A stretch of DNA of 63,038 bases, filler included, from Licmophora abbreviata (taxonomy: Eukaryota): assembly GCA_900291995.1 (NCBI GenBank). It is 11 parts of 11 records of this genome, joined end to end, with 100 filler letters (N's around TTAATTAATTAA, not from the genome) between each part and the next. Parts side by side here need not be neighbours in the genome. Positions count along the whole stretch, not along the records: positions 29,246 to 34,926 come from OLMU01000141.1; 10 more parts are not named here. One strand, written 5' to 3'. Positions 4,563 through 61,060 of the stretch are shown here, one piece after another. The notes under the pieces were generated by a model, which had not been told where the DNA came from, searched no databases, and worked only from the letters and a program-made list of their open reading frames with translations. The position numbers were made by a program, and so were the translations under genes. The number at the start of each line of letters is the position of its first letter. Within the stretch, counting starts at the first letter, position 1.

Positions 4563-7410
4563 TTATTTTCGTCGTCGCTTTGATTGTGAATGAATGGGTC
4601 TGCCACTGTTGTCATCACCTGTGGACGATGAGCCAGAGCCTCCACTGTGTTGAGAGAAGTGGAAGCGGCCATAGTGATCCATTTCCACCCTTCCTGGCGT
4701 AGCTTGCTGGTGGCGCTCGCGAGGGTGCTCCATCTGATGCCATTCAGCGGCGACGCCGTTTTGCTGCCCCACGAATTCCCGCGCCTTCCGTCGTTGGTCG
4801 GGTGTCATACGATTCTCCATTCCGTAGAGAGACAAGATTTGGTACTGAAAGCAGAGAAATTCGAGATCAGACTGCAAGGAGAAGTCCATTGTCATTGGAT
4901 CACAGTACATGATGTTATGAACGTCAGGGACGTTGCCATCGAATCCGCCATAAGCGAAGGCCGTGCACTCCATAATGCGAAGTACAGCAACGGCATCCTC
5001 CAATTGAACAACGTTGCGGTACAATAGTCGAGCATGAGCTTGAGAAAGTCTAATCATCGACTCCAGGAAGCGAACCGTGACGGGAATGGTAGAGCTCTCG
5101 GCCATACGAACGCGTTCGTAGTGACGCTCTAAAAGAGTCGCCGCGTCGTCGCTCATGGCCGGACTGAAGCGATCTTTGACTAACGCAATGTAGGCACGCA
5201 GTTTTTCCATGCTCCATGGTGTCGTCTCGAGTGGGCTTCCATCCTCCGTCGTGTCGAGCCCAGCTCCCTAAAGAACACATTCGGTCAGACGGTAATGAGA
5301 ATAGCTTGCCAACATCATATGTAAAGAGCTGTGAAAGATTCAACCTGAATTGGCTTACCTGGATAGCTCGATTCAGAAGGTACGTCGTGATGTTTGCATC
5401 GCGTTCTGCGTCCGACGAGTCGACAAGCTTGAAAATAATGTCGAATCGCGAAAGAAGAGGGGTTCCCAGACCAGTGTTGCGAGAAAGGCTGGCATGATTG
5501 TCGTACAGACAGTCACGGGGGTTCATGACTGCAATAATGGTGGCACGGCAGTTCAGCTTGCAGACGATTCCAGCTTTTGCGATCGAAAGTGTCTGCTGCT
5601 CCATGGCTTCGTGGATGGTCGTTCGATCTTGCTCTTGTATGCACCCGAACTCGTCGATACAGCAGACTCCCTTGTCCGCAAGGACGAGAGCACCAGCCTC
5701 CAAAACGAACTCTTTGCCACTGCCCTCCCGAACGGCAGCGCAAGTTAGACCTGCCGAGGTTGTACCGACCCCGGTCGTCAGAACAGAGCGAGGACAAAGC
5801 GTTGCAGCAAAACGTAGAAACTGAGACTTGCCCGTTCCTGGGTCTGTATTTCAAAAGAGGTAAGCAGCGTCGATATAGCAAGGCATTCGAGTACTAAACA
5901 ACGTGACAACTCACCTCCGACGAGCAGCAGGTGCGACTGGTCCCGGCGACGTGTCTGGACCGTCGCTTGTCGATGAGTTTTGCGCAGTTGTGACAGTCCT
6001 CGTGCACCCTCGTAGTTGCAAGTCGACTTGTTATCTACACATCTATTGTTCGCAATGTGGAACGGGACGGGCTCGTCATCGTCGCTATCGTTTCCATCCG
6101 ATGCGGCATGGGATGCTTCGCTTGGTCGTCGTGTGGCTGTATTGTTGGGGTCCTCATTCTCTTGGTGCTGCTGATAGGAGTCGGACGACACACCACCAAT
6201 CAGCGTTATCAGCAATGCCAGCTTGATCATAGACATGCCATACAGCTTGGGACATACAGCCTTGCAAATAAAGTCTCGCGCGGCAATGGGATTCTCCAGA
6301 TGGTGGGGGTCGTTCCAGTAGTCATCAAATTCCAGTCGAAGCTTGTCCATGTCGCCCAGTGCGGTTGTATCCCCACTCTCCCACCCCGAAGCCCCTTTTT
6401 CTTGCAAAACACGAATCGAATGAGCCTTAAGCGCCATTCCAACATTGCAGTCAACTTCTGGAATGCACGCCTGATGCCACTGCGCGAGGAGCGATCCTAC
6501 CAACACAATTTCGTCGCCCGGTTGACATTTCTCGACAAGATCGTGCTGCAGCTTGATGAGTAGCGATCGAGGTATATGACCTACTCCAATGCGAGATGCC
6601 GCTTCTTGAATTTTGATTTCCTGATAGTCCGTATGTACCGAAGCGATATGTTTCAACTTGTTACCTCGACATCGTTCGCTCCCCGACTTGAAAAGAGGAC
6701 ACGAGTCGGGCTTGGCCAGGGCGTTGTGGCGTTGCTCAAGGTCTGCGTACTCGACAAAGGTTTGACCACAGCCATTCTTTCCGGTGCACTCGTAGGTTCG
6801 GGCACTTTCTTACATTTGCACCGGCGAAGCACGTACTACTGTCCCCGACAATTGAACAATCTTACCGACATCACTGGCATCGACCGACGCCAGGGAGGTA
6901 ATACAGCAGGTCGGGGCCAAGTGTACCAGTCGCGCATGCACTCGCGTCATGGGCTGACCACCTTCTCCCTTGTCGCCCTTGACAGTGAGAGAAGCTTCGG
7001 AACGCACGTGGCTTCCTGGTTGCAGTTCCGATCGAATTGTTTGTTGCGCCAGGACAATTGCGTTTTCNNNNNNNNNNNNNNNNNNNNNNNNNNNNNNNNN
7101 NNNNNNNNNNNTTAATTAATTAANNNNNNNNNNNNNNNNNNNNNNNNNNNNNNNNNNNNNNNNNNNNATCGGCGTGCAGCAAGTCGAACATGTTGATTTC
7201 GAGCGGGTAGTCCCGTGTAGTGGAGCTCTGTGCTGCCAACAGGGTCTGCAGGGAGGCCCGGCATGTGTCAGTTCGCAAGAGGTGTCGTAGAAATCGCTGC
7301 TCGACTTCCGTCGGGGGACCAAGGTCCTTGTAGGACGCTCGTTGCAACCGCTCTGCGGACCAGTTGTGTAGGTCTAGTGCAGAATCCGCTTCGTCTAGAT
7401 TCGGTTCCAT
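4563..7410 (-). CDS. MCM9: MCM8/9-family DNA helicase, most like MCM9 (multi-exon, spans assembly gap, in-frame TAA at 6810-6812)
   Basis: [23 protein letters not shown] Walker A split by an intron, [74 protein letters not shown]. Confidence 0.88.
7068..7167. other. Artificial assembly linker (N-TTAATTAATTAA-N, 100 nt). Same at 18324-18423, 21661-21760, 29146-29245, 34927-35026, 39293-39392, 48722-48821, 51477-51576, 55444-55543, 60899-60998
   Basis: Identical 100-nt blocks with stop codons in all six frames. Genes continue across several of them. Confidence 0.97.
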
Positions 7411-18321: not shown

Positions 18322-18423
18322 ACNNNNNNNNNNNNNNNNNNNNNNNNNNNNNNNNNNNNNNNNNNNNTTAATTAATTAANNNNNNNNNNNNNNNNNNNNN
18401 NNNNNNNNNNNNNNNNNNNNNNN

Positions 18424-21410: not shown

Positions 21411-21986
21411 CCTAGATCTCTGTGTCCCTTCTTCCAGTGCCTTCGTTTCATACAAGACGGTTTAGGTTGTTACCAAGGAAGGGAGTCGTGCGATGTAAGT
21501 CCACGACAGTAAGCATCGCTTTAACGACACCACACATCCCAATGCAATTCAGCAGTGAACCCCAAATCACGACGCAATGACCCATGGCGCAACGCCAATC
21601 GACGTCATTCTCGCCATTTTTTCTGGTCGCGCGGAAACAAACACACTTCGACGACGGACANNNNNNNNNNNNNNNNNNNNNNNNNNNNNNNNNNNNNNNN
21701 NNNNTTAATTAATTAANNNNNNNNNNNNNNNNNNNNNNNNNNNNNNNNNNNNNNNNNNNNAGGCACAGGCTCCTATCCTCATCACGCGTCGTCGTCTTAC
21801 ACACAATCACAAAGGAACTTCATCTCTATTTGTGCGCCGCTCTACCGTTGTAGCTATGATAGGATGGGAACCTTGCCAAATCTTCGTCCTTTGATATTAC
21901 CTATAAGAAGAAGCCACAATAATAAGTAGCCCAAAAACAAACGATCCGACTCTACACTATCATCACTCCTATAGTCTAGCTACCCT

Positions 21987-27739: not shown

Positions 27740-29036
27740 ATGAAGTCTTCTATCCTGCTGTATCTCGGAATCGTTTTAGTGGCGCTGTTGGCTGTACTTC
27801 TGGGATATCCACAGCCCAAATTGGATTTTGAGCGCGATATTTTGCCCCTGGCGAAAGCACGCATGGGGATCGCGACGACCGCAAGCACGGCGACTCCTCT
27901 GGACGGTCTTGTGGTGGTGATTACGGGCGCGACGGCTGGGATAGGGAAAAGCATGACACATGCGCTTATCAGTATGGGTGCTACAGTAGTGGCGATTGGT
28001 AGATCGAAAGAAAAGCTTGACGCCCTCAAGCACAGCGTCAATCAAGATGCGGGAAGGCTGATTCCTGTAGTGGCCGAACTGAGTGACTTGGAGTCCGTTT
28101 CCAGAGCTTCTGATGCCATTCAGGAACAGTTTCACCACATAGATGTCCTGATCAACAATGCAGGCATGCATTATGCCTGGTCGACCTTTCATCATCCTCT
28201 CACGCCACAGGGCTACGATCTCTCGTTCGGCGGTGAGTACTACTATACTCGTACGCTATACTCGAAGAGATTTGCATGTCTGTTTCGCGCTTTTGACTCT
28301 GATTGATTCTCACTCTGACAATTTGTTTGAACATTTAGTGAATTACCTTTCACACTTTCTCTTGACGGAGCGAATGGTCCCGCTCCTGCGAAATTCGGGA
28401 CGCCCTTCCATCGTCCAGGTGTCGTCTTCGTTTCATTTGGCCGTTGACGGGTCCGACCTGCTGCCCCAGAAGGATGGAAGTGGCCCGATTGCCAGTCAAA
28501 AGGGAGCGACGAAACTAAGGCTATGGCGAGACCAACGTGCCTATTCCAACGCGAAACTAGCGCAGGTGCTACACATGCGGTCGCTGCAGCGAGAGTATAC
28601 CGACATTCATTCTGTCAGCGTCTGCCCGGGATGGGTCGGGACAAACATTGCGGGGGGATCCCATCGTCTGGTCTATCACATCTTATCCAGCCTGGCCTTT
28701 CCAGTCGATGGGTTTGGTCTGAATTCCTTGCTGCATGCCGTATTACGCACTGAGTACGATGATGACGAAGAGCACGGCAAAGGAGATTTCCTCTACAATT
28801 CACGATTTGTGGCCCTCGCGTTTTCCAAATGTCCAAAGTGGATGCTCAGTCCTCGCATGTACGAACTGGGTATTCGGGACGCGGTCATGTTTGCATTGGC
28901 TTCCGTCATGCTGGTAGCGCAGAAGTTCACGCCGGAGGTGCATGCTTACGCGTCATCACCGGAGAGTTACAGCGTCGAGCTGCAGGATGAGCTCTTCGCA
29001 TGGAGTCGAAGCGCGGTGGCCGGGTTTCACTCGTAG
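27740..29036 (+). CDS. Short-chain dehydrogenase/reductase (retinol dehydrogenase/WWOX-like) with N-terminal anchor (intron ~28233-28338)
   Basis: VITGATAGIG, LINNAG, VNYLSHFLLT, VSS, YSNAK (YxxxK), CPGWVGT. Confidence 0.9.
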
Positions 29037-29265
29037 AAACGACTTAGGCGTTGGCGACAAACATATAGAATATCACTTCAATACTAGCGACTAATAAGTT
29101 GTGTAATAGGAAAGACAGTCTCGCACGTCAGTAGCAAACCCCAACNNNNNNNNNNNNNNNNNNNNNNNNNNNNNNNNNNNNNNNNNNNNTTAATTAATTA
29201 ANNNNNNNNNNNNNNNNNNNNNNNNNNNNNNNNNNNNNNNNNNNNTTTCACAATGGATGACAGGG

Positions 29266-31656
29266 TCACTGTACTAGCATCGCAGCCACATCATTCGAAA
29301 GCAGTCTTGCGAAGAAGAATACGTCCGTCCAGTACTCATGCATCTGGAAGATATCACTCTTCTTTACCAGAATGCTTTGTTTGATTTTGGGAACGTCACT
29401 GACTGCCGTATGAACGTAGACCTCAGCGTCGCGATCCAGATGACCCGCTGTCTCAATCTCGAAGCTAGTGCACCATTTGATGGGGATCGACTTGTATTCA
29501 ACCTTCTTCCCTCGCAAACCTTGGACGTCGATTATCATCACACGGTGTGTAGTGTATACGTACATGTCTCGTCCTTGCCGATAGGCTCGTTCAACTCTCT
29601 CGTCGCTCAACAGGATAGCTGGCTCATTGTGTAGCTGGCTATCAACCACCGCTGCGTCTTCTTCCTCTGAGTTATCCGTAAGCCACGAAAGGAAGCTTCC
29701 TAGTCCGGCTGAATTCGTAGTTTCAATGGGCGACGCAGTGCTGCTAAAGTATCGGGCGGCATCTTCTTCGCTGCCTATCACAATGGCAGACAAGAACTTC
29801 TGGATGGCGATAATGTCCGCTTTGCCTTTGCGAAAGTCCATGGCAAACTTCTTAAGATCCCAGAGGTTTCGTGTGTAGATATCAACCTCAGAGTCCCGGT
29901 CCCAGCCTCCAGCTGACTCGGCTGAAAAGCCTCGAACGCTTGCGTACGGGATGCTGGTGTACGCAATCTTCTTTCCTGACCAGCCTTGAACGTCCATTTC
30001 TGTGCAAGTACGCGAGGCGCAAAAGTCAGTGTATTAGCTTGGATTTTCTACAATGTCAGACCTTCGCATTCCACTTACCCAAGATTCGCATGTTTGTAAA
30101 GAGCGTGATATCGCGACCAGATTTGAATGCCATGACAATATTCTCATTATCTAGAAGGATTGGGTTCGTAGTGTGGAGCTCCTGATTGAGTTCGGCCGGA
30201 TCAATCGCCCGCTGGTCATCGCCAATCTTTGACAAAAACTTCTCGAATCCTCGCTCTTCGGGCGACGTCATGATTGCATTCGGCGATATCTGAACGCTCG
30301 GCGTCCCCTGAAGGAGTCTCAGCGAGAGGTATTTCTTCAGGACCATAATGTCCACCAGATTCTTGTTGAAATCTAACTCCAGAGCTGACATTCCGGGCGT
30401 ATCAGGGTCATCTCCCTGGCCAGGGTCGAACATCATGTCTGTCCACAACATGACTTCCGCATCTGTATCCATGTGCTTTCCGGCAGTCTTGACTCCAAAC
30501 CCGACGATCCGTTTCCAGGGGACACTTGTATACTCGATCTTCGCGCCTTTCCAGCCCTTTGGATCAATGTCGATCAGTCGCTTCGTTGTAAAAAGTGTTA
30601 AGTCACGCCGCCCTTTGAAGGCAAACTCGACGTGCTCGCTGCTTTGAAGAATAGGAATTTCAGAGTGATAATAGCGATCCATCTCCACTGCATCTAGAGG
30701 ACGCTGGTTGTCACGGAACCACCAACTTGTCTTGGGATCCATGTGGCCCTGACGACGATCAACGTCGGGAGCGGCCGACTTGTCTTCGCCCAAAATGCGA
30801 TTGGATAGGTACTTCTGGATCGCGATGACATTAGCCCTGCTCCTCCGAAAGTCTTGGCCAATTTTGCTCTTGAGAGGGATATTTGTGTAGATAGTCATTT
30901 CGGTGTCACGGTCCAAGTAAAACCAGCCGTTTCGACAGCGAATCCGCTGATGCTCCTCCACGTGAGAGAGAAGAATTCTACCTTTTTCCCCGTAAGACCT
31001 TTGACATCGATGATAAGCATCCGCTTGTTGGTGAAGACGGTGGAGTCGCGTCCAGCCTTGAATGCCATCTCGACTTTTTCGTCTTGGAGCAAGATAGGAT
31101 TCTCATTCTTGAGCCTCGATTCCACTTCGCTGGGTAGCAGCTGCTTCGCGTTGTCACCGAACCAGTCAATAAGATTACCGAGTTTACTCTGTTTGTTGGT
31201 CAGAGGGGGTGGAGTGCCTTCAACAAAGTCTTCAGTTCCAAGCTCATGAGCCCAGTCGACTTTGGAGTTCAAAAATTGTTGAACAGCAAAGATGTCGACT
31301 TGGCCTTTGGCGAAATCTATCGACAGTGTCGTGAATCCAGCGGCCCAAACGTGGAGCTCCACATCTCCGTCGATGAACTGTCCCGCCGTCTCCACCGAGA
31401 ATGCCTTGATTGACTTGTACGGAACGCTCAAGTAGTTGCGTCTCTTGCTACCGATGCCCTTTCCATCCTTGATGAGGATTCTGTGGGAGGTCAAATACGA
31501 CTTGTCCCGGCCAACGCCGCCTCGGCCCTTGAACGCCAGCTCGATTTGTTCCTTGGGATGCAGCAGGAGAGGATACTTTTCCCTGACCTTCGCTTCTTCC
31601 TCGGCTGCGTTAACTTGGAAGGCGTTGTCGCCCAGGAAAGATCCAAACACTGACAT
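29266..31656 (-). CDS. Protein of five tandem bacterial-type PH (bPH_1/PF08000-like) domains (intron 30000-30078; frameshift at ~30920)
   Basis: Five repeats of LL..E.(I/V)..AFK..RD...FT..R(I/L)..D..G..GKK..Y.SIP...I..F.VETAG..D.D.E...DF.....I..Q.(F/Y)L. Confidence 0.85.
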
Positions 31657-31939
31657 GGCAGGTGTTATTGCTCGTAGTTCTCTTTGTGCAGCAAGGGGCA
31701 AAGCTTCAATATGTTTGCTGTCGTTGTGGGTCGTGGCCTTCGCGTCGTCAGTCACAAGCGTGTTGATGTTTGCTGAGAGTGTCGCGACCCCTTCGACCAG
31801 GAATACATTATTTTCATGTGCTCCTGCCTTCGACTGAGTCGAGTCTAGTTCGTCCTTTTGGACTGCATCATAACTTTTTGGAACACAGCTCAATTGAGAG
31901 CACCCATCCCGTTGCAACCGTTGCTTGGCAGCAAAGAGA

Positions 31940-33434
31940 ATGAGCTCTTCAGAGTCAGATTCGGGCGATGAGAATGAGGAAGTTGAGGAAGTTCTGGAGG
32001 ACGAGCTGTACGATCACGATTGGCAAGACGAGAATCCTTCCGTGTTCTCGAGGCTTGCCATCTTCGGAGACTCTCCATGGTCCCTCTTGACGTCTTTCTC
32101 GATGATGTTCATCGCCATTGCCATCGTGTACGTCTTGGATGAGTCTCCGTTGCAAGAACAGGCGTCTTTTCCTCCCCTAGGCCCGCTTCCAAAGATCGAT
32201 CCTCCTCACATTTTCACTCTCAGTGTCCAAGTCGACGACGAAGCCACGCCATCGACGGAAATACGAAGGGCCTACGACAGGGACGGGGTTGTCTGTGTAC
32301 GAGGTCTCTTATCAGAAGACCAGCTACAACGACTGGACACTGCCTCGTCTATTTTGATTCAGGAACAACAAGAGCAAGACTCGCGGCGCCCACTCAAACG
32401 AACTGGCACTCAGTTCCACACGGTGCGACAAGGAACAGTCTTCCGAGCACATGATTCAGTGCGAGACCAGGATACTCCAGTGGCTGCTACCTTTCAAGAG
32501 ATTGCCTTACATTCGGCCGTTCCCCACTTTGCAGCTGCTCTCCTGCAGCTTCCAAGCGATGCTTCCAACAGCAACATGCGTTTGATGCGGTAAGGAATGG
32601 AAGGCGCTCTCAATTCGCCGTATAGCGTGTGTGCGAAGCGTCTTCATCTCTCACGACCTTCACCCCGTCTTGTTACATACCAGCGACATTTTCCTCGCCA
32701 AAGACGAAGAGCAGTATGTTTGTGGATGGCATGTAGACGATACCGGTTTCTGGCCTGCTACAGCAGAAGCATCTGGCGTGAACGCCTGGATAGCCATTGA
32801 CGACATGCCTCGTCGACGAGGCGGAGGCTTTGCTCTGGCAGTCGGATCGCATGTGGCACCATGGCATGACGAAGCTCATCATGTGACAGGATCAACCATG
32901 ACATTCCCGAAGGATGGATTTCGTGACGCAGCTGATATGGCAGCCAATCGAACGGGCTCTGGAACTTGCAATATCAGAACGGCGGCTCCTCACATACACA
33001 AGCGAATGGAGCAAACGAAACGGATCTACAATGTCAAACGTGGCGACGTGATCTTTCACACGCGCTGGCTCTTTCACCGGACAGTTCCCTTTGATAGAAA
33101 CGCAAGATCCAATGACACGAATGATGAAATTTATCGACGCTATTCGGTGCGATACGGTCCAGGTTCGTCTCGTATCCCTCCTGGATACGGACTCGAGCCG
33201 AGCGTACTATGGAACGAACAGAATGCCGGAAGAACGGCCGATGAGGTGGCCTTGCAAGATGGACCGTGGTATCCGCAATGTTGGCCGAGCACAGATGAGA
33301 AGGAGCTCGAACAGATTGGGGTTCTAATCGACGAGAGACTTCCTGTCGCCGAAGAGAGGCGGAAGGAAAGACGGCACGACATTCAAAAATATCTGGACAA
33401 AGTCGGAAAGGGAAGGCACAAGAGCCAGCACTAA
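31940..33434 (+). CDS. PhyH-family 2OG/Fe(II) dioxygenase with N-terminal TM (intron ~32590-32683)
   Basis: AYDRDGVVCVRGLLS, GWHVDD (HxD), VNAWIAIDD, GSH, GDVIFHTRWLFHRT, RRYSVRY. Confidence 0.85.
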
Positions 33435-33489: not shown

Positions 33490-36400
33490 CTACGAGACGC
33501 CAAGGCGAGACAGTGCATTGTCGCAAAATTCTTCGATCCCTGCATTGTTGCAGATCGATCGAACGTTGGCGATTCGCCGCCCATCCCGGAGCCTTGCTGC
33601 TTCACCAACTGCTTTCTTCCACATACGAGCCTCGCAAAATAGATCGTATCGCTCTTCCGGAATCGCAACTCTTTCAATGTAGCGCAAAATTTCTGGCGAG
33701 CTTTGGTCGCCCTTAATGGCAGCACGGGCGAAAGGCTTGAATCCGATAGGAGGTTTCGTTTTGGAGTCGGCCAGTGCTCGTAGATTCGCCCATTGGTCAC
33801 TCTCTGCGAACGCTTTCACTTTGACATGCCAAAACCGACGCTCCGGGACCCGAAACTTCTTGGCAAGCTTCTCGGCGTCGTTTAACAATCTATGTGTTTC
33901 GCGCTTGTTCCTCGCAGCATAGTGGATCACCGAAACTATTAGCGCCGTCACGGACGAAGCATCGGGAACGACCTCGGGCGTTCCATATTTTGATCGTAGG
34001 ACCTCTTGAGAGTCAAGTAACGCGATATAGTCGTCGGTACACTGTTTATGAAACGCCGTTTCTTTTCCAAGTCCAAGGACACGCGAAGATTCCTACTCGC
34101 GTACAGAAGAGAAAAAGCGATGAGTTCGCGTCTTCCGCACGATAAACATACGTATGTGAGTGGTCACAATGAGGTAACCACAGCTCTCCCTTACCTTCAA
34201 CATGCCCATCCCCTCTCGCTCATCGGGGTTGCTCATGCCTCGTTTTGCCATCACGGCTCCGGCATCAACGAAACGATTTGCCCGCAGAAGCAAGTTCATG
34301 ACATGCTTTACCTCCGGCATGGCTCCATAGTATCGCTGCAGAGTGTTGACACTTTCAGGAGTGAACTTTGTTACGACAGTTCCCAGAAACGATGCCTGTC
34401 CTGACGACATGTCCTTCGCTGAAGACATGCATGCTTTCTCACATTCCATAAGAGAATAGAAAATGAATTCCGCATCTCTGTGATGGGAGCAGTGAATCAG
34501 ATTAGGGGTCATCCCGGGTGTACCAAACGCATGCACCTCACCAAACTTCTACCTTCTCTTACCTAGCATTCGTTGCCACCGCCGAAGCGTCCGCAAAGGA
34601 CTGTGCACTAATCAACGCCGGCACCTTATCGGCGACACTTGTCTCGAGCATAAGCAGCAAATTCGCCACTCCTGGTCTTCCAGCGCGAATCGCAGCAAGC
34701 GCCACTGTGGCATATGCGCCGCTGTTCACATTATACGCTTTGCTGCCCGGATCCGTCGTTCGAATATCATCCTGGTCGGCTTCTTCGTTAATTGTACGAA
34801 TCGCCGCTTCCGCCACTTCGGCATCTGAGGAGTTCCCGGGGTAGCTGGCTACAAGAGCCGCGGCCTTGGAAGCTCGAGCAAAGAGCTGAACTGACCTCGG
34901 AAGTTCGAGATACATACAAATGGAAGNNNNNNNNNNNNNNNNNNNNNNNNNNNNNNNNNNNNNNNNNNNNTTAATTAATTAANNNNNNNNNNNNNNNNNN
35001 NNNNNNNNNNNNNNNNNNNNNNNNNNCCCGAGCTGCCTCGTCGGAAGCAGCAGACCCAGAGTCAAAGGCGTCTGACGCATCCAAAAGCATGGCGGCTGGC
35101 TCAATCGAGCCAATGCGCAGGAGCAACGCAGTCGAGGGTGGCACCCGTTGCAGAAGCTCCACAGATGCGTCGCTTATGACACGGCAACAGTCTATTTCCG
35201 GAATAAGGTAGAGATTCTCAACGTCCTCGTAGGGAAACCGCAACCAGTCGCCGTATGGGCCAACCATAAGGACGCCTAGGTTTTTCCAATGAAGGACGAC
35301 ACTGCAGAAGCGCAAGCAAATTCATGTGAGCCAGTTGATGTAGACCGTACTGCGAGACACACAAGCTGATCGATTCATCCACCCTCCGCCTCACCTGTCT
35401 TCTCCGCACCACTTCATGTCAAGAGGAGGCGCCGACGATCCCTCCGAAGTGTCAAAGTCGAGAACTTTCGTTTCAAATGATGTCGAGATCACGGTCAGGA
35501 TAGACGACTGCGTAAAACATGCAAGAAAACGACCATTCGGAGCAAATGTCATGGCCACAATTGGGGAGGAGATACGCTCACGACATTCAACGTCAACCAT
35601 CTCAGTTGTGACGGTGTTGACAACCACAACTGAATTATCGGAAGTGGACAAGAAGACGTCCGGATGCCGAGACGTAGTGTGAACACGAGGTAGAACCGCA
35701 ATGGACGCGTAGCTGAAGTTATGATTGCTACAATACGCGAGAAGAAAAAAGAGGTCAGATCGGAAATGACTTGCGATAAGGACGCAGTACTCGCTGCGTG
35801 CTTACCTTGCATATCCTGCTGTAGACAGCGGAGTGACTATGGCAAAGTGCGAGGGCGACGATTCGCCTTGCTGCATGCCACCAGCAACAATATCGCCCCC
35901 CGTAAAGTTCGATGAGGTCGGAAAGATCTGGCGTGATGCCAAATGACAACCATCAATGTATGCAAGATCGTCGTGATCATCCAAGAGCTCCGCGATGGCA
36001 GCTTGCATGTTTGCTCCCAGCACCGCCACGCCGCCGTCGTACACAGTCGCCTGCAGTAGTTCCGTCCCCGACCCCTCGCTACTAGGCATGATGTGAAACG
36101 GAGGAAGAACGGGAGTTCCATCCACGGCATACGTGAGACAAAGAGAGTCGCGCATGACGAGCAAAAGTGCCATACGATCCGTGAAGCCCATTGTCATGAC
36201 GTCGGACGCAGAGTACATGCGCGAAAGTTCTCTCGGAGGAAACGTTATATTAGATAAGGATCGCCCTGCATTTGTCATGATTCGTATTTCCGTCGTCGTC
36301 ATGGACGTATTTGACAGAGTGCCAACAACGGGGAGCGTCATGGCCGCAATCGGTCCCCCATGCGGACAACCGACGACTCTGGTCACCGTCGTATTAGCCA

Positions 36401-39103: not shown

Positions 39104-39591
39104 CTTGATCGATGCACAGCGTATTGTATCATAGACTGTGGGCGATACACTCAGAGTTCTCGCGATATATCCTTCTTGGCGGCGCGACCACCTTGAACCT
39201 GTTCAAATGCAATGGATTTTCTTGAGTGGATCCTGCTTTGAAGTTTGTAGAATCCTACGCGTAGATAATACCAACAAAATTGGATTTGAGTTNNNNNNNN
39301 NNNNNNNNNNNNNNNNNNNNNNNNNNNNNNNNNNNNTTAATTAATTAANNNNNNNNNNNNNNNNNNNNNNNNNNNNNNNNNNNNNNNNNNNNTATCATCG
39401 GGTAGACCCAAGAGACGGTACTTGCACCTGTTCTAGTAGGAAGTGAGGAGTGACCCTATACTTCCTGATTCTTCTGCTTAATAGATTCGGAACTCGCCAA
39501 GGCGAACAACGTGCTCCGGCCGAGGAACGCGTCTTGTAAGGGATTTCGTCGGAGACTTTGTTGCTGTGCGTATTAGACTATCAGGCTCACG

Positions 39592-46477: not shown

Positions 46478-49400
46478 ATGTCTGGAAGACTTTCGAACCT
46501 GATTTCAACAAGATTGAATTTGACCCCTCAGGAAGACAATATAACTTCCAGCGTCGCTTCGCGGCGTCATTCTGTAGGACCTGATGATGAGGAGGAAAGC
46601 AGAGAGGAAATCCCGGCGTCTAACGGCGCACAGTGGGGTGGTCAAGGCAAAATCATGGTGAGAATAGAGATGTACTATTACCTTTTCCATTTCCCAACTA
46701 CTTCCTGAATCTCAATTGGCGTGACCAACTCCCTACTGTGTCGAACCACCCGGGAAAGGCTCTCCCACGAACCAAAGCAGGGAGCACGAAAGAATTGCTA
46801 AGGATGGATCGCTTTAAGACGCGCCTCAGACGTGGGTCGACACTAGCGCAACAGGTCACAATCCCTTACAGGCGAGGACGTAGACACGACGCTCTTTTGT
46901 CTCGGCAGGTCCAGTCGACCCACTCCTACGCAAAATTGATGCTGAACACCTTTGTCGTTTACTTTATAGCGGTGACAATGTCTACCCTTGTTCTCCAGGT
47001 GTTTAACATTTATCAGGATAAGGTCACGGACGAGCAATGTATTATCGGCTATGAGTATGAATCGACGTTCAGTAAGTCATATCGACGACCATGTGATCTC
47101 CCCACTTCATCATCGCGTCTGCGCTAAGCACCTGCCCACAACACGTCACGCAGATATACACAACTTTAGTATAGTCTTCGAGCTATCATGGACAACATTC
47201 TCTACCGTCGTAAGTCATTTTCCTTGACCTCAGTACTTTGTCTGTGTTGTCGTTGCGGATGCCGACTTGTCTGACATATCTACGCCTTGTGTTGCAGGGC
47301 TACGGAGCGACAGCGCTCACGCCCGCGGTGAGTCACTAAACTACTCTTTGTATATTCCGGTGATTGGCTTTAGCAATGTGGCCTCTGACAGTGCCATGCC
47401 CGTTTGCTTGCTTCAGTCGGCGTGCAGGGCATTGAGAACTCTCCTTTGTATCCAAGCATTCTTAGGAGTCATATATGCAGGCTTTTGTGCTGCAATCCTG
47501 TTTTCGAAGATATCGAGACTCCTCTCATACGCCCAGGTGACCTTTGCAAGTTCAATTTGCCTTCCGTTTGGTGAGAATGTGCCATCCTTGGGACCTATGA
47601 AGGGCGAGATCGTGAGTTCAAGACTGGTGTCGGGACATGAGCTCGATCATCCTTTCGTACACTGACGGTGTGTTTTAATTCCAGGGCGATTCGGCAATGG
47701 GCAACAAAACCTCGACCCCAGAGAAAGCCCACTTCCCGATTCTTCAGATGCGGGTCGTCAATGATGTATGTTTCAGTGATACGCTGCAGTGGATTGCGGC
47801 AGAAAGTATTTGGAACACTCACGACGATCGGACACACCTTTCCGTTTAACCGCAGAGGTCTCGTTTGGGAGGGAATATCATCAATGCTAGGATGAATTGC
47901 GTCGCTGTTAAAGTGACAGGCGCTCATTCTGGTGACGAAAGCGAAATTGAGGATAATCTCGTTCGTGTTGAAGGTGTCGGCGAATCAGAAGTGAAACCAT
48001 CGCAGAAGGAAAGAATCTACGAAGAGGTCGTCGTGGCTCCTGACACATATCCGTTCTTTGATCAAGGTGTCTGGTACTTTCACCATGTCCTAGACGCGCA
48101 GTCACCGCTTCTTGCTGATTCTGTTCGCGAGCGTATTGCAAGGGACAATGCATGGCCGACCGACCTCAACCAGCATGATAGCATTCGCGCGTGCCTTTCC
48201 GACGAAGTTGAAGAAATCGTGAGTTCGTTTTGCCAACGGGTATGGCATGATGCACGTTGCGTCAATTCTTACAAAACAGGGGAACCCACTGCCATAATCA
48301 TCTGATTTCGAATTCTCACAGGCAGTTTCCATTCAAGGCACATCGGACTTGACGGCAGACGAGGTGTACAGAACACAGGCTTACGTTCTGGATGATATTT
48401 TTGTTGGATGGAAGTTTGTCAACTTGAATTTTATACCCGATAATGGAGAGAAGCATCCCTCGGAGGCTCAGGATGATTTATCTTTGGTCAATGACATTGT
48501 AGAACAAGAGGGAGGTGGGAGTGAACCGATCGACTTGTCGACTCAAAACAGCCGTGGACGGGGACACTACTTTCGCCGTTCTGCCGAATTGTCAGAGCCT
48601 ATGAGTTTTCGTTTGCGCCGATGGCGGAGTGTCAGCACAAGAGTGCGGGGTTGGTTATGCTGTAGGATTACACGCGAGAAAATGCGACAATATCGAATTT
48701 CCATGCGGACGGACAGGATTTNNNNNNNNNNNNNNNNNNNNNNNNNNNNNNNNNNNNNNNNNNNNTTAATTAATTAANNNNNNNNNNNNNNNNNNNNNNN
48801 NNNNNNNNNNNNNNNNNNNNNTGCGACAATATCGAATTTCCATGCGGACGGACAGGATTTCGTTCAGAGTTGAATCTGGCTTCAGTCGCATCGAAGCCAT
48901 TGTTGTTCGGTGGACACTCTGGCATCACAGAACAACATTCCTCCGCTCAATCCTTGGGTCTCTCGCTCTGTACCTCGTTTTCACTTTGTTATTTGGTCTT
49001 TTCGTTGTTTCGGTCTCAAGGATAACTGAACTTGCAAGCGGGGTCGTGTGCGTTCCAAGTTGGGTGGACACAAGGGACGCCATCTCTCAGTTTTATATCG
49101 CATATGAGGTCTCCTGGACAACTTTCAGTACCGTCGTAAGTAGGTCTTGCCAGTACAAATGGGGTGTTAAGTCTCCACATTCGCTCAATTCAACTCTGTC
49201 ACGGTGCATGTAGGGGTGAGTCGTATCACACCAGAGGGCTGCATTGCATCGAGGTCGAATGCACTCATTGCGCAGTCTTTTGTTTTGCAACAGCTACGGA
49301 GTGGTTAGCCCAAGTATTGAGGAGGAGTGCGGCGGCCTGACATTCCTTCTTGCAGTTGAGGCTTTCGTAGGGGTATTATACACTGGTTTCTGTGGTGCAA

Positions 49401-50576: not shown

Positions 50577-52036
50577 CTACTGTGGCATCGCCAGCCCGTT
50601 GATAGATACCAACGTGATGTCGTATTGCAATGTCGCGTCCGGGGGTATTCCTCTACGCGGAACGCCTTTCGAGCCATACGCCAAGACAGGTGGAATGATC
50701 AAGCGCCGTCGCTCCCCCTGAAGAAACACCCAGAAGCGTGAGAGATATCCAGTCGAACATCACAAGCTTGCAACACACTCTCTGGACACGAGCGTAGACA
50801 CACTCACCACACACATTCCTTCGACTCCCGCGTCCCATCCGGGGGGAAACTGCCCGAAGGGCTGTTTTCCGAGTACAAAGAACAAGGAGACGTCGTTGCC
50901 CCGGCCAGGAATGCCTTGTCCATTGATCTTGATGGCCGACCCGTCAAAAACTGCACCCGTCTCAACGATCGTCCCCAGATATGATATTTCAAGCAAGTCG
51001 TCCGTTGTCGCACCGCGATTGCACATCTTGGGAGGAAGCAGCTGAGAAACGGTCAATTTCTGGTCGACCTGAGCAGATACAGCCCGGCCGGCCTTGACTG
51101 AGCCGTCGGCGTTTCGTTGTGTTGTGTCACCAGCAGGAGCGACCTGCGTCGTAACTTCTCCCGTCGATGACAAATCAGAAAGTCGTTCTTGAAAGACAGA
51201 AGGATCGCGAAAGCGCAGATCAATGGATCCTCCCTCTGGGGTGGACTTGACGGCTTGCAGAACTAGGATACCAACTCCCTCAGGATTGGTACGCTCGGCG
51301 CTCTTACCGTTGACGCTCACAACGACCCAGCCTTTCTGAATTCCTAATTTGGAAGCAGCCGAGCCCGGTGCGACAGACTTGACAAAGACACGAATGTTTG
51401 TTCGAAAGTCGACTTGCCCAAGCTCGATGCCAAGTCCTCCTCGGGATAGTTCAGACTTGGGTATCGATACCGTGAGNNNNNNNNNNNNNNNNNNNNNNNN
51501 NNNNNNNNNNNNNNNNNNNNTTAATTAATTAANNNNNNNNNNNNNNNNNNNNNNNNNNNNNNNNNNNNNNNNNNNNCAGACTTGGGTATCGATACCGTGA
51601 GCTCATCTGAAGCCGCAGTCTGTGACTGTGGAAGTGTCTTCCCTGTAGGCGATATCGACGTTGATGACGGAGAGTGAAGTCCTCGATAGGCAGAGTCTAC
51701 TGCAGTATTGGCGAAAGAGTCCGTTTCGTCCGTCACTGCGGCATGGGCAGCGGACACCTTCGCCAATCCAAAAAATGAGCCCACCCCTGAGAACCAGGCT
51801 CGCCTGTCATACAAGGAAACATCATTTACTCGACTCAAATCGTCTTCCGAATCGGTAACTTCAAGCGCGTTTTGATGTAACCTCCTGCGTAAAAAACATT
51901 GATCATGCGCAGAACGACGACACGCACCATCATGCTGACGCGTTCCTATTCCAGTAAACGCCTTGCAACCGATCAATCTCCCCACAGCTATCGAAAAGAC
52001 AATGAGACATAGAAATCCAGATGACCATGGCATCAT
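50577..52036 (-). CDS. Thylakoid-lumen-type PDZ + FKBP peptidyl-prolyl isomerase (spans zero-length gap; intron ~50718-50808)
   Basis: Signal + CKAF, RR..AHA motif, GLGIELG...VFVKSVAPGSAA...VSVNG (PDZ), ISYLG...VFD...FVLG...GWD.GVEGMCV|GERRRLIIPPVLAYG..G.....IPPDATLQYDI. Confidence 0.88.
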
Positions 52037-55122: not shown

Positions 55123-55775
55123 CTCCTCATCATTGTCGTTGTCGCCACATTCACATCATTAACGCGAATTCGACTCACTCGACTGCTAGTCTGTCCCTCA
55201 CCAAACTTTCAGTCTTGCGCCTCCACGTGGCGAAACGAAACATATCAAAATGGAAAGTACCAAAATTAATATCAAAACAAATCGATTTATTTAAAAAATA
55301 AAAATCAATTCCAAACAAGCAAAAGTGCTACTTTTTACTACTTTTCCAAAACGTGCCTCATGCTAGTGGTTTTCGGATGGCCAGAAGTTTGAGAGCTCGC
55401 ATAGCTCGTGACTCGGCGAGCACTTCTTTTTCGGTCTCGATGANNNNNNNNNNNNNNNNNNNNNNNNNNNNNNNNNNNNNNNNNNNNTTAATTAATTAAN
55501 NNNNNNNNNNNNNNNNNNNNNNNNNNNNNNNNNNNNNNNNNNNGATGATGACGGGGAGAGTGTTCTGGCGTCCTAGCCTCTCGTTTGGCTTGTTTATATG
55601 TCTTGATTTATCATTGATATTAGCCGAAGGGTCCCGGTCCGTAGCGCCTGTCAGATCTCAGACAGCGATCGAGTACAGGACGAACAAGCATTCAGTCGGT
55701 TTGGTAGAGGGGTGTTCCGGTGGCATTCAGGTTGTCAGTGTTGCCAAGGATGACAACTTTACAGCGCATCGAGAT

Positions 55776-60898: not shown

Positions 60899-61060
60899 NN
60901 NNNNNNNNNNNNNNNNNNNNNNNNNNNNNNNNNNNNNNNNNNTTAATTAATTAANNNNNNNNNNNNNNNNNNNNNNNNNNNNNNNNNNNNNNNNNNNNGG
61001 AAACAATTGCAAGAGAAAGCGTTGTGTGTGTGTTGGAAGTGGTTGCCAGCCATTTGCGAA

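Follow-up and report, generated by a model that had tools for sequence, protein, structure and literature searches.

The window analysed here, a stretch of 63,038 nucleotides from the Licmophora abbreviata assembly GCA_900291995.1, is a series of joined contigs separated by ten linkers, each made of N44, a 12-base all-frame stop linker and a second N44. One of these contigs, OLMU01000141.1 (29246..34926, 5.7 kb), which is bounded by the artificial linker at 29146..29245, carries on its minus strand a gene for a protein of five bacterial-type PH (bPH) domains. The gene runs from 31656 to 29266, and its ends are exactly those given in an earlier, sequence-only reading of this DNA. The start codon is the ATG at 31656-31654 (minus strand), the first in-frame ATG of a frame that is open back to 32013, and the stop codon is the TGA at 29268-29266 on the same strand. 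Between them lie three minus-strand open frames in series (30895..32013, 30056..31102 and 29266..30033). The link between the first and the second is a frame break of one base, near 30922/30923 in a short run of G and T (site 30919..30925), where the contigs of two other sequencing runs have one more base. The second and the third are linked by a candidate spliceosomal-type intron of 79 nt (30078..30000, minus strand), which has GT..AG ends, is in phase 1, lies in the fourth repeat and shows a branch-point-like CTAAT/CTGAC upstream of its acceptor. Exon 1 (30079..31656, minus strand) holds the frame break and is supported by Pfam matches and a gapless alignment to a 757-aa relative, P0004; exon 2 (29266..29999, minus strand) ends with the TGA, 21 nt short of the contig boundary. 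Once the frame is restored and the intron removed, the conceptual product has 770 aa (~86 kDa) and is 62% identical to P0004 over 758 columns with 3 gap columns. This alignment is free of gaps at both the frame break and the splice junction, and removal of the intron likewise gives a gapless alignment to relatives.

In Pfam, the three pieces of the product match bPH_1 (PF08000) together with its overlapping sister model bPH_3, and nothing else. The bPH_1 scores are 160, 99 and 130.4 bits (E-values 3e-47, 2.4e-28 and 4.6e-38), so that in the profile check that had been proposed for PF08000 all three pieces stand above the curated cut-off of 27.7. Six matched stretches become five domains once they are joined across the frame break and the intron, and P0004 scores 411 bits against PF08000 in 5 stretches. 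On the minus strand, the domains are repeat 1 (R1; 31189..31656, 156 aa), repeat 2 (R2; 30734..31188, 152 aa across the frame break), repeat 3 (R3; 30254..30733, 160 aa, with a longer beta6-beta7 insert), repeat 4 (R4; 29713..30253, 154 aa after splicing, containing the intron) and repeat 5 (R5; 29269..29712, 148 aa), all of them bPH_1 and each supported by Pfam, by the repeat alignment and by the site residues discussed below. Seven repeat pieces align in register, the pieces being 15–41% identical to repeat 1. The sequence-only reading had described exactly five diverged repeats and no other domain, which the Pfam matches bear out, and the motifs it cited (RD, KR, D..G..GKK and ETAG..D.D.E) are found in 5/5 repeats. 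PADLOC and NCBIfam searches gave no match, and the PHROG match is to phrog_7115, a family of unknown function. Among relatives, candidate NERD and VPS13_C domains were rejected as weak rows that overlap the PH domains themselves.

The closest solved structures form rings. In the PDB, a profile made from the window repeats finds 3DCX and 3HSA (E ~1e-28, five chains per entry) and gives a weak match to the PHb2 structure 3B77 (E 8.6e-5). 3DCX and 3HSA are PHb1 proteins of Shewanella (PF08000/DUF1696 group 1), which share with the window repeats the family, the strand order and the acidic residues. According to Xu et al. 2010 (PMC2817789), PHb1 proteins of ~125 aa form dome-shaped C5 rings; together with the five chains per PDB entry, this agrees with the single-domain C5 background that the sequence-only reading had given. 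In the ring described in that paper, beta4 of one subunit and beta5 of the next build eight-stranded blades, and the conserved surface residues all lie at a mostly acidic site between two adjacent subunits, a composite of D42, D55, Q57 and K63 from one subunit and E80, D86, D88 and E90 from the other (PMC2817789). PHb2 proteins (3B77, Bacillaceae group 2) have the same PH-like core and the composite inter-subunit site, but carry an extra C-terminal helical hairpin and form a C12 ring (PMC2817789); the window repeats are without the hairpin and resemble group 1. The functional hints that the paper offers for PF08000 are induction by envelope stress and sub-membrane fractions in Bacillus (PMC2817789). 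The number of domains per chain here, five, equals the number of subunits per PHb1 ring. PHb1 proteins, on the other hand, are single domains of ~125 aa in a non-covalent, symmetric C5 assembly with equivalent sites, whereas here five diverged copies are fused in a chain of ~770 aa with five non-equivalent sites, encoded by a eukaryotic gene with an intron. As a fused product is not a homo-oligomer, we regard it as a variant of PHb1 and not as a member of the homo-oligomeric form.

The number of repeats was counted across the family. In a set of 71 relatives of 490-2000 aa collected by a word-index search, an HMM built on the window's repeats counts five repeats in 56 proteins, four in 11 and three in 4, with no protein above five. 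Of 1.84 billion representatives searched exhaustively with HMMER, 1811 match at E<=0.001 (213 at E<=1e-30), and the best 150 of the 1811 show a maximum of five matched stretches. In the pooled set of 214 proteins, 98 have five repeats, 21 four, 41 three, 53 two and 1 one; a search for six-repeat relatives found none even with loose settings. Free variation in repeat number, which had been named beforehand as the observation that would count against the ring, is thus not seen (0/214 above five, 98/214 at five). The order of the repeats is equally regular. Position-specific HMMs trained on 33 full-length proteins give the order 1-2-3-4-5 in 32 of 34 held-out full-length proteins, the other two reading 12342 and 42421. 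Shorter proteins are mostly contiguous parts of this order: the four-repeat proteins (n=21) comprise 10 of the type 2345, 6 of the type 1234 and 5 others; the three-repeat proteins 14 of 345, 9 of 123, 6 of 234 and 12 others; and the two-repeat proteins 23 of 45, 16 of 12, 6 of 23, 4 of 34 and 4 others. The 19 shorter proteins inspected (four-repeat and some three-repeat ones) either begin part-way through a repeat (or in the tail of repeat 1) or break off within a strand, and three shorter proteins submitted to BLAST match an internal part of five-repeat relatives; those checked look like truncated gene models. A "4.5-repeat" class of nine proteins, considered as a case of variable repeat number, was rejected as a gene-calling artefact, and in the genomic DNA of one such locus, L080, repeat 5 is complete and split by two GT..AG introns. 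At the level of sequence comparison, these data show a five-domain order that does not change across the family and is older than the family's spread.

The history of the repeats was followed in a tree that combines 7 bacterial proteins with 125 repeats, those of the window and of 24 relatives. This tree groups the repeats by position, with 11 label changes against a minimum of 5 and a shuffled mean of 83.3, and the window repeats fall in starred clades of their own position, printed for 4/5. The bacterial rows lie on one side of a branch with a support of 99* in the repeat tree and of 78/80 in a second, more careful tree, in which R1, R3 and R4 of the main family form starred clades and R5 has a support of 94/85. 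Since the repeats group by position, one five-fold duplication is older than the sampled family. A protein outside this pattern is P0131, a singleton of 765 aa on one contig of 2456 nt, whose five repeats form a clade of their own in the careful tree (100/99*). AU tests reject the placement of its repeats 1, 3 and 4 with the matching classes (p 0.0013, 4.9e-5 and 5.1e-5), for groups chosen once the tree was in view. The repeats of P0131 are 38-47% identical to one another, as low as in the main family. Either five was reached a second time in P0131, or an old array was homogenised and kept five.

Conservation at the junctions between repeats was assessed at the residues R41/D42, R50, D55, K63, E80/T81, D86, D88 and E90, numbered as in Xu et al. 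2010 (PMC2817789). In the window, the site residues are kept in 5/5 repeats except for K57 in place of Q57 (R1-R3), R63 (R1), K80 (R3) and S81 (R4). Over 67 relatives, conservation ranges among the repeats from 85 to 96% for D42, 67 to 93% for D55, 76 to 96% for D86, 78 to 94% for D88 and 72 to 94% for E90, and certain changes are conserved by position: K57/R63 in R1, K57 together with R80 in R3, and S81 in R4. The acidic composite site appears to be retained at all five junctions and to have diverged by position. Conservation of these junction sites while the rest of the protein drifts, combined with their divergence by position, would argue for the binding of partners there and gives a clue to the surface that matters. 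A relaxed, "orphan" half-site was looked for in R1 and R5 of the 67 relatives and was not found.

An AlphaFold2 model was made of P0004 with 67 aligned full-length relatives. It has a mean pLDDT of 83.3 and a pTM of 0.85 over 757 residues, and its confidence falls below 50 in linkers only (residues 150-164, 462-464 and 613-632). The order of strands and helices is identical in 5/5 repeats, that of a PH-like fold with alpha0/beta0, then a sandwich of seven strands and finally a helix at the C-terminus, and single domains of the model superpose on 3dcx_A with a TM of 0.88 and an rmsd of 2.2 A (Foldseek), at 33-36% identity per domain; the model thus shows every domain to have the predicted PHb1 fold. 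By the definition of the score, a pTM this high means that the ordered residues are almost all positioned to within a few angstroms relative to each other, and it suggests a rigid body of five domains; the value speaks to rigidity, not to shape. An arrangement of beads on a string, the second outcome set beforehand as counting against the ring, is not borne out by the P0004 model. Contact between the two ends of the chain was addressed by docking repeat 1 of P0004 (residues 1-135) with repeat 5 (622-757), which gave 0.50 (runs 0.54, 0.48 and 0.50), with a contact agreement of at least 94% and a partner pLDDT of at least 78, where the best of 3 controls gave 0.00. Of 157 solved complexes, 116 reach the mark used for docking, against 2 of 215 mismatched pairs, and scores of 0.60 or less comprise 18 of the 157 solved complexes plus both mismatches that passed; the R1+R5 result is rated as weak support, and the pass may stem from the model's memory of solved PHb1 pentamers. 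Covariation between beta4 and beta5 of different repeats, sought in 96 proteins, shows no excess for neighbours, for closure or for any register, a null that is uninformative because the bacterial interface, according to the 2010 study, consists mainly of main-chain hydrogen bonds (PMC2817789).

The main alternative to a closed chain accepts the five domains as real and conserved, and holds that the chain stays open, as an arc or lock-washer, or assembles with other chains into larger rings or stacks, five being a spacer number. The same fold builds the C12 ring of PHb2 (PMC2817789), so that the PF08000 fold has no fixed ring size; the weak docking of R1 with R5 and the missing covariation signal for closure fit such a chain too. 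Several observations, on the other hand, make this alternative unlikely. First of all, the number is strictly five, none of the 214 relatives exceeding it. Second, five was reached or kept separately in P0131. Third, 3DCX and 3HSA, the nearest relatives with a solved structure, likewise have five subunits. Fourth, the pTM of the P0004 model implies a confident mutual placement of the five domains. Finally, in a chain that stayed open, R1 and R5 would each have a half-site with no partner, and both half-sites are conserved in both repeats, which gives indirect support to closure. We therefore favour a single chain that closes into a pseudo-C5 ring, and consider such closure quite probable. Of the single-chain pseudo-C5 ring put forward in the sequence-only reading, the fixed number of five, the rigid body predicted for P0004 and the conserved junction sites have stood; closure itself we infer, with R1+R5 docking weak and covariation null.

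In the closed single-chain ring, the five domains would be arranged as the subunits are in the homopentamer of bacterial PHb1 proteins. Beta4 of each repeat would pair with beta5 of its neighbour to give five blades of eight strands, each helix alpha1 would be connected to alpha0 of the following repeat by a flexible linker of 20-30 residues, and repeat 5 would touch repeat 1, so that a single chain closes as a pseudo-C5 dome. The window product has a net charge of -13 and the family a median of -14, and the dome may serve as a docking platform or cap, asymmetric and negatively charged, that binds basic segments of a single partner protein or of several at the five non-equivalent sites. We put this role forward tentatively, as an idea with a smaller chance of being right than of being wrong. 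Likewise short of an even chance is the proposal that five fused PHb domains represent a selected closure number reached at least twice, in the main algal family and in the lineage of P0131, giving a natural single-chain pseudo-C5 PH ring whose five acidic sites are specialised for different partners in an asymmetric hub. If true, such a hub would be without counterpart among known PH-domain proteins.

The frame break bears on whether the window copy is intact. Contigs from four public runs, derived from other samples than the source of this assembly, were compared with the stretch, and an extra base behind 30922 restores the frame in near-identical contigs of 2 runs from 2 studies, X1 and X5 (a single contig each, at depths of 2.3 and 2.98, respectively), at least 99% alike over the part covered; X5, guessed to be RNA, covers 30531-30979 only, that is, outside the intron. 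Since the break is absent from these near-identical contigs of two other studies, it is probably an assembly error. A second difference is an extra base behind 29324 in one X1 contig (depth 2), which alters the last ~15 residues, and both readings of the C-terminus, with and without this base, resemble relatives. One could take these differences as true mutations, the frame break and perhaps the second indel near 29324 marking the window copy as a dead gene of a family that is functional elsewhere: the break does stand in the assembled sequence, and the intact form is known from other samples, at depths of 2-3. Such a gene would, however, have kept 770 codons open apart from one break, at 62% identity to a relative and with 3 gap columns, and every site residue intact, while the extra base in contigs at least 99% alike from two studies supplies the missing position. 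The stretch is, moreover, a string of short contigs, typical of the remainder of a low-quality assembly, and the adjoining PhyH-like gene has a frame break too. We thus regard a dead gene as rather improbable.

By its intron and its surroundings, the five-bPH gene belongs to the nuclear genome of a diatom-like alga. Eukaryotic residence, which the sequence-only reading had based on a spliceosomal intron, is upheld: removal of the 79-nt GT..AG intron restores the frame, the same contig carries a Vps16_C region (E 2.2e-24), and two introns are present in the relative L080. Contamination with bacterial DNA, or a bacterial insert of recent date, might be suggested by the overwhelmingly prokaryotic distribution of PF08000 (7999 proteins, 67-224 aa long, at E<=1e-8) and by Xu et al. 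2010 (PMC2817789), who name bacteria, phages and archaea only, but an intron that splits the reading frame, the two introns in repeat 5 of L080, Vps16 on the same contig, named relatives in the diatoms Seminavis robusta, Nitzschia and Cylindrotheca and in the transcriptome of the dinoflagellate Gymnodinium smaydae, and best bacterial matches that are single-domain and just 36-46% identical make it highly implausible. An acquisition from bacteria is consistent with the distribution and the trees, for an outgroup of Bacteroidota only, as the protein search and a genome scan gave Bacteroidota-like proteins almost exclusively. The explanation as a whole, a nuclear gene of a diatom-like alga that encodes five PHb1-type domains in one closed pseudo-C5 chain, appears to us likely, by about the same measure as closure or slightly less.

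The PF08000 family and its ring were already known. The fused five-domain eukaryotic form is annotated automatically in databases and is undescribed in the literature searched: a full-text search on DUF1696/PF08000 found no eukaryotic or multi-repeat form, no description of five-fold pseudo-symmetry built from a PH-like domain was found in the same literature, and the words "tandem", "repeats" and "diatom" are absent from Xu et al. 2010 (PMC2817789). Rings with C5 symmetry are rare, and PF08000 proteins are without an assigned function. A natural chain that contains the whole ring would be a clean case of the passage from an oligomer to a tandem-repeat protein with the subunit number preserved. 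The beta clamp has three domains in each of 2 chains, PCNA has two domains in each of 3 chains, and beta-propellers likewise trade subunits against domains. Sliding clamps and beta-propellers thus make the same move, in which a ring unit is duplicated and fused, fewer chains are needed and the repeats can specialise; their folds, on the other hand, are unrelated to the PH-like domain. The gene also adds a bacterial-type domain family to the genes common to bacteria, diatoms and some other algae. For further work, one chain of ~86 kDa with asymmetric sites, in organisms for which genetic tools exist, would be an easier target for structure and interaction studies, and such studies could reveal the role of the bacterial PH rings.

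The ends of the proteins bear on where the product is located. In 70 of 95 five-repeat proteins, and likewise in the window product, the first repeat starts 10 aa or less from the Met, which leaves no room for a targeting peptide; the ~770-aa product is therefore probably cytosolic. N-myristoylation was considered, as 30 of the 95 proteins start with MG, and was rejected: bacterial homologues start with MG too, and by the usual motif rule residue 6 is mostly unsuitable. Relatives with N- or C-terminal extensions have no other Pfam domain in these extensions. As a separate observation on the N-termini, about ten divergent relatives carry a hydrophobic, signal-peptide-like leader.

The repeats of P0131, a 765-aa singleton from outside the window with five PH repeats, have one another as their closest relatives (clade support 100/99*), and their position-wise orthology with the repeats of the main five-repeat family is rejected by AU tests; in P0131 the five-fold array thus either arose separately, as a second one, or has been homogenised. 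Apparent departures from five repeats occur in public protein sets, where nine models carry 4.5 repeats and end at the first of two introns in the fifth repeat. In L080, the genomic locus of one such relative, these GT..AG introns lie at 4594-4669 and 4811-4916. The 4.5-repeat class is a gene-calling artefact and not a true half-repeat form. A divergent set of five-repeat relatives (P0090, P0091, P0093, P0094, P0099, P0104, P0105, P0107, P0132 and P0176) carries an N-terminal extension of 44-218 aa, which opens with a hydrophobic, signal-peptide-like stretch and hints that some paralogues may be routed to the secretory pathway or a plastid.

At the C-terminal end of the five-bPH product, a single metagenome contig from run X1, at depth 2, carries one additional base at window position 29324, which would alter the last ~15 residues and place the stop ~20 nt further upstream; the C-termini of relatives are resembled by both readings, with and without this base.

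Reading of the sequence shows that the window was chained from 11 short contigs by artificial linkers, each made up of N44, a 12-base linker with stops in all frames and a further N44 (7068-7167, 18324-18423, 21661-21760, 29146-29245, 34927-35026, 39293-39392, 48722-48821, 51477-51576, 55444-55543 and 60899-60998). Genes separated by a linker are not genomic neighbours. On the contig preceding that of the five-bPH gene, an open frame at 28152-29036 (+) has a weak short-chain dehydrogenase match, at 23.7 bits below the cut-off of 26.6. On the same contig as the five-bPH gene, a divergently oriented neighbour (31898-33434, +) lies ~290 bp upstream of where the five-bPH gene starts, with a PhyH (phytanoyl-CoA dioxygenase) match in its second open frame (E 8e-9); its two open frames overlap at 32586-32593, so either a small intron or a further frame break is present. 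This contig also holds a Vps16 C-terminal region at 33493-34092 (-; E 2.2e-24), which perhaps extends on to 34924; Pfam gives no hit for the open frames that lie beyond it (34096-34548 and 34562-34924).
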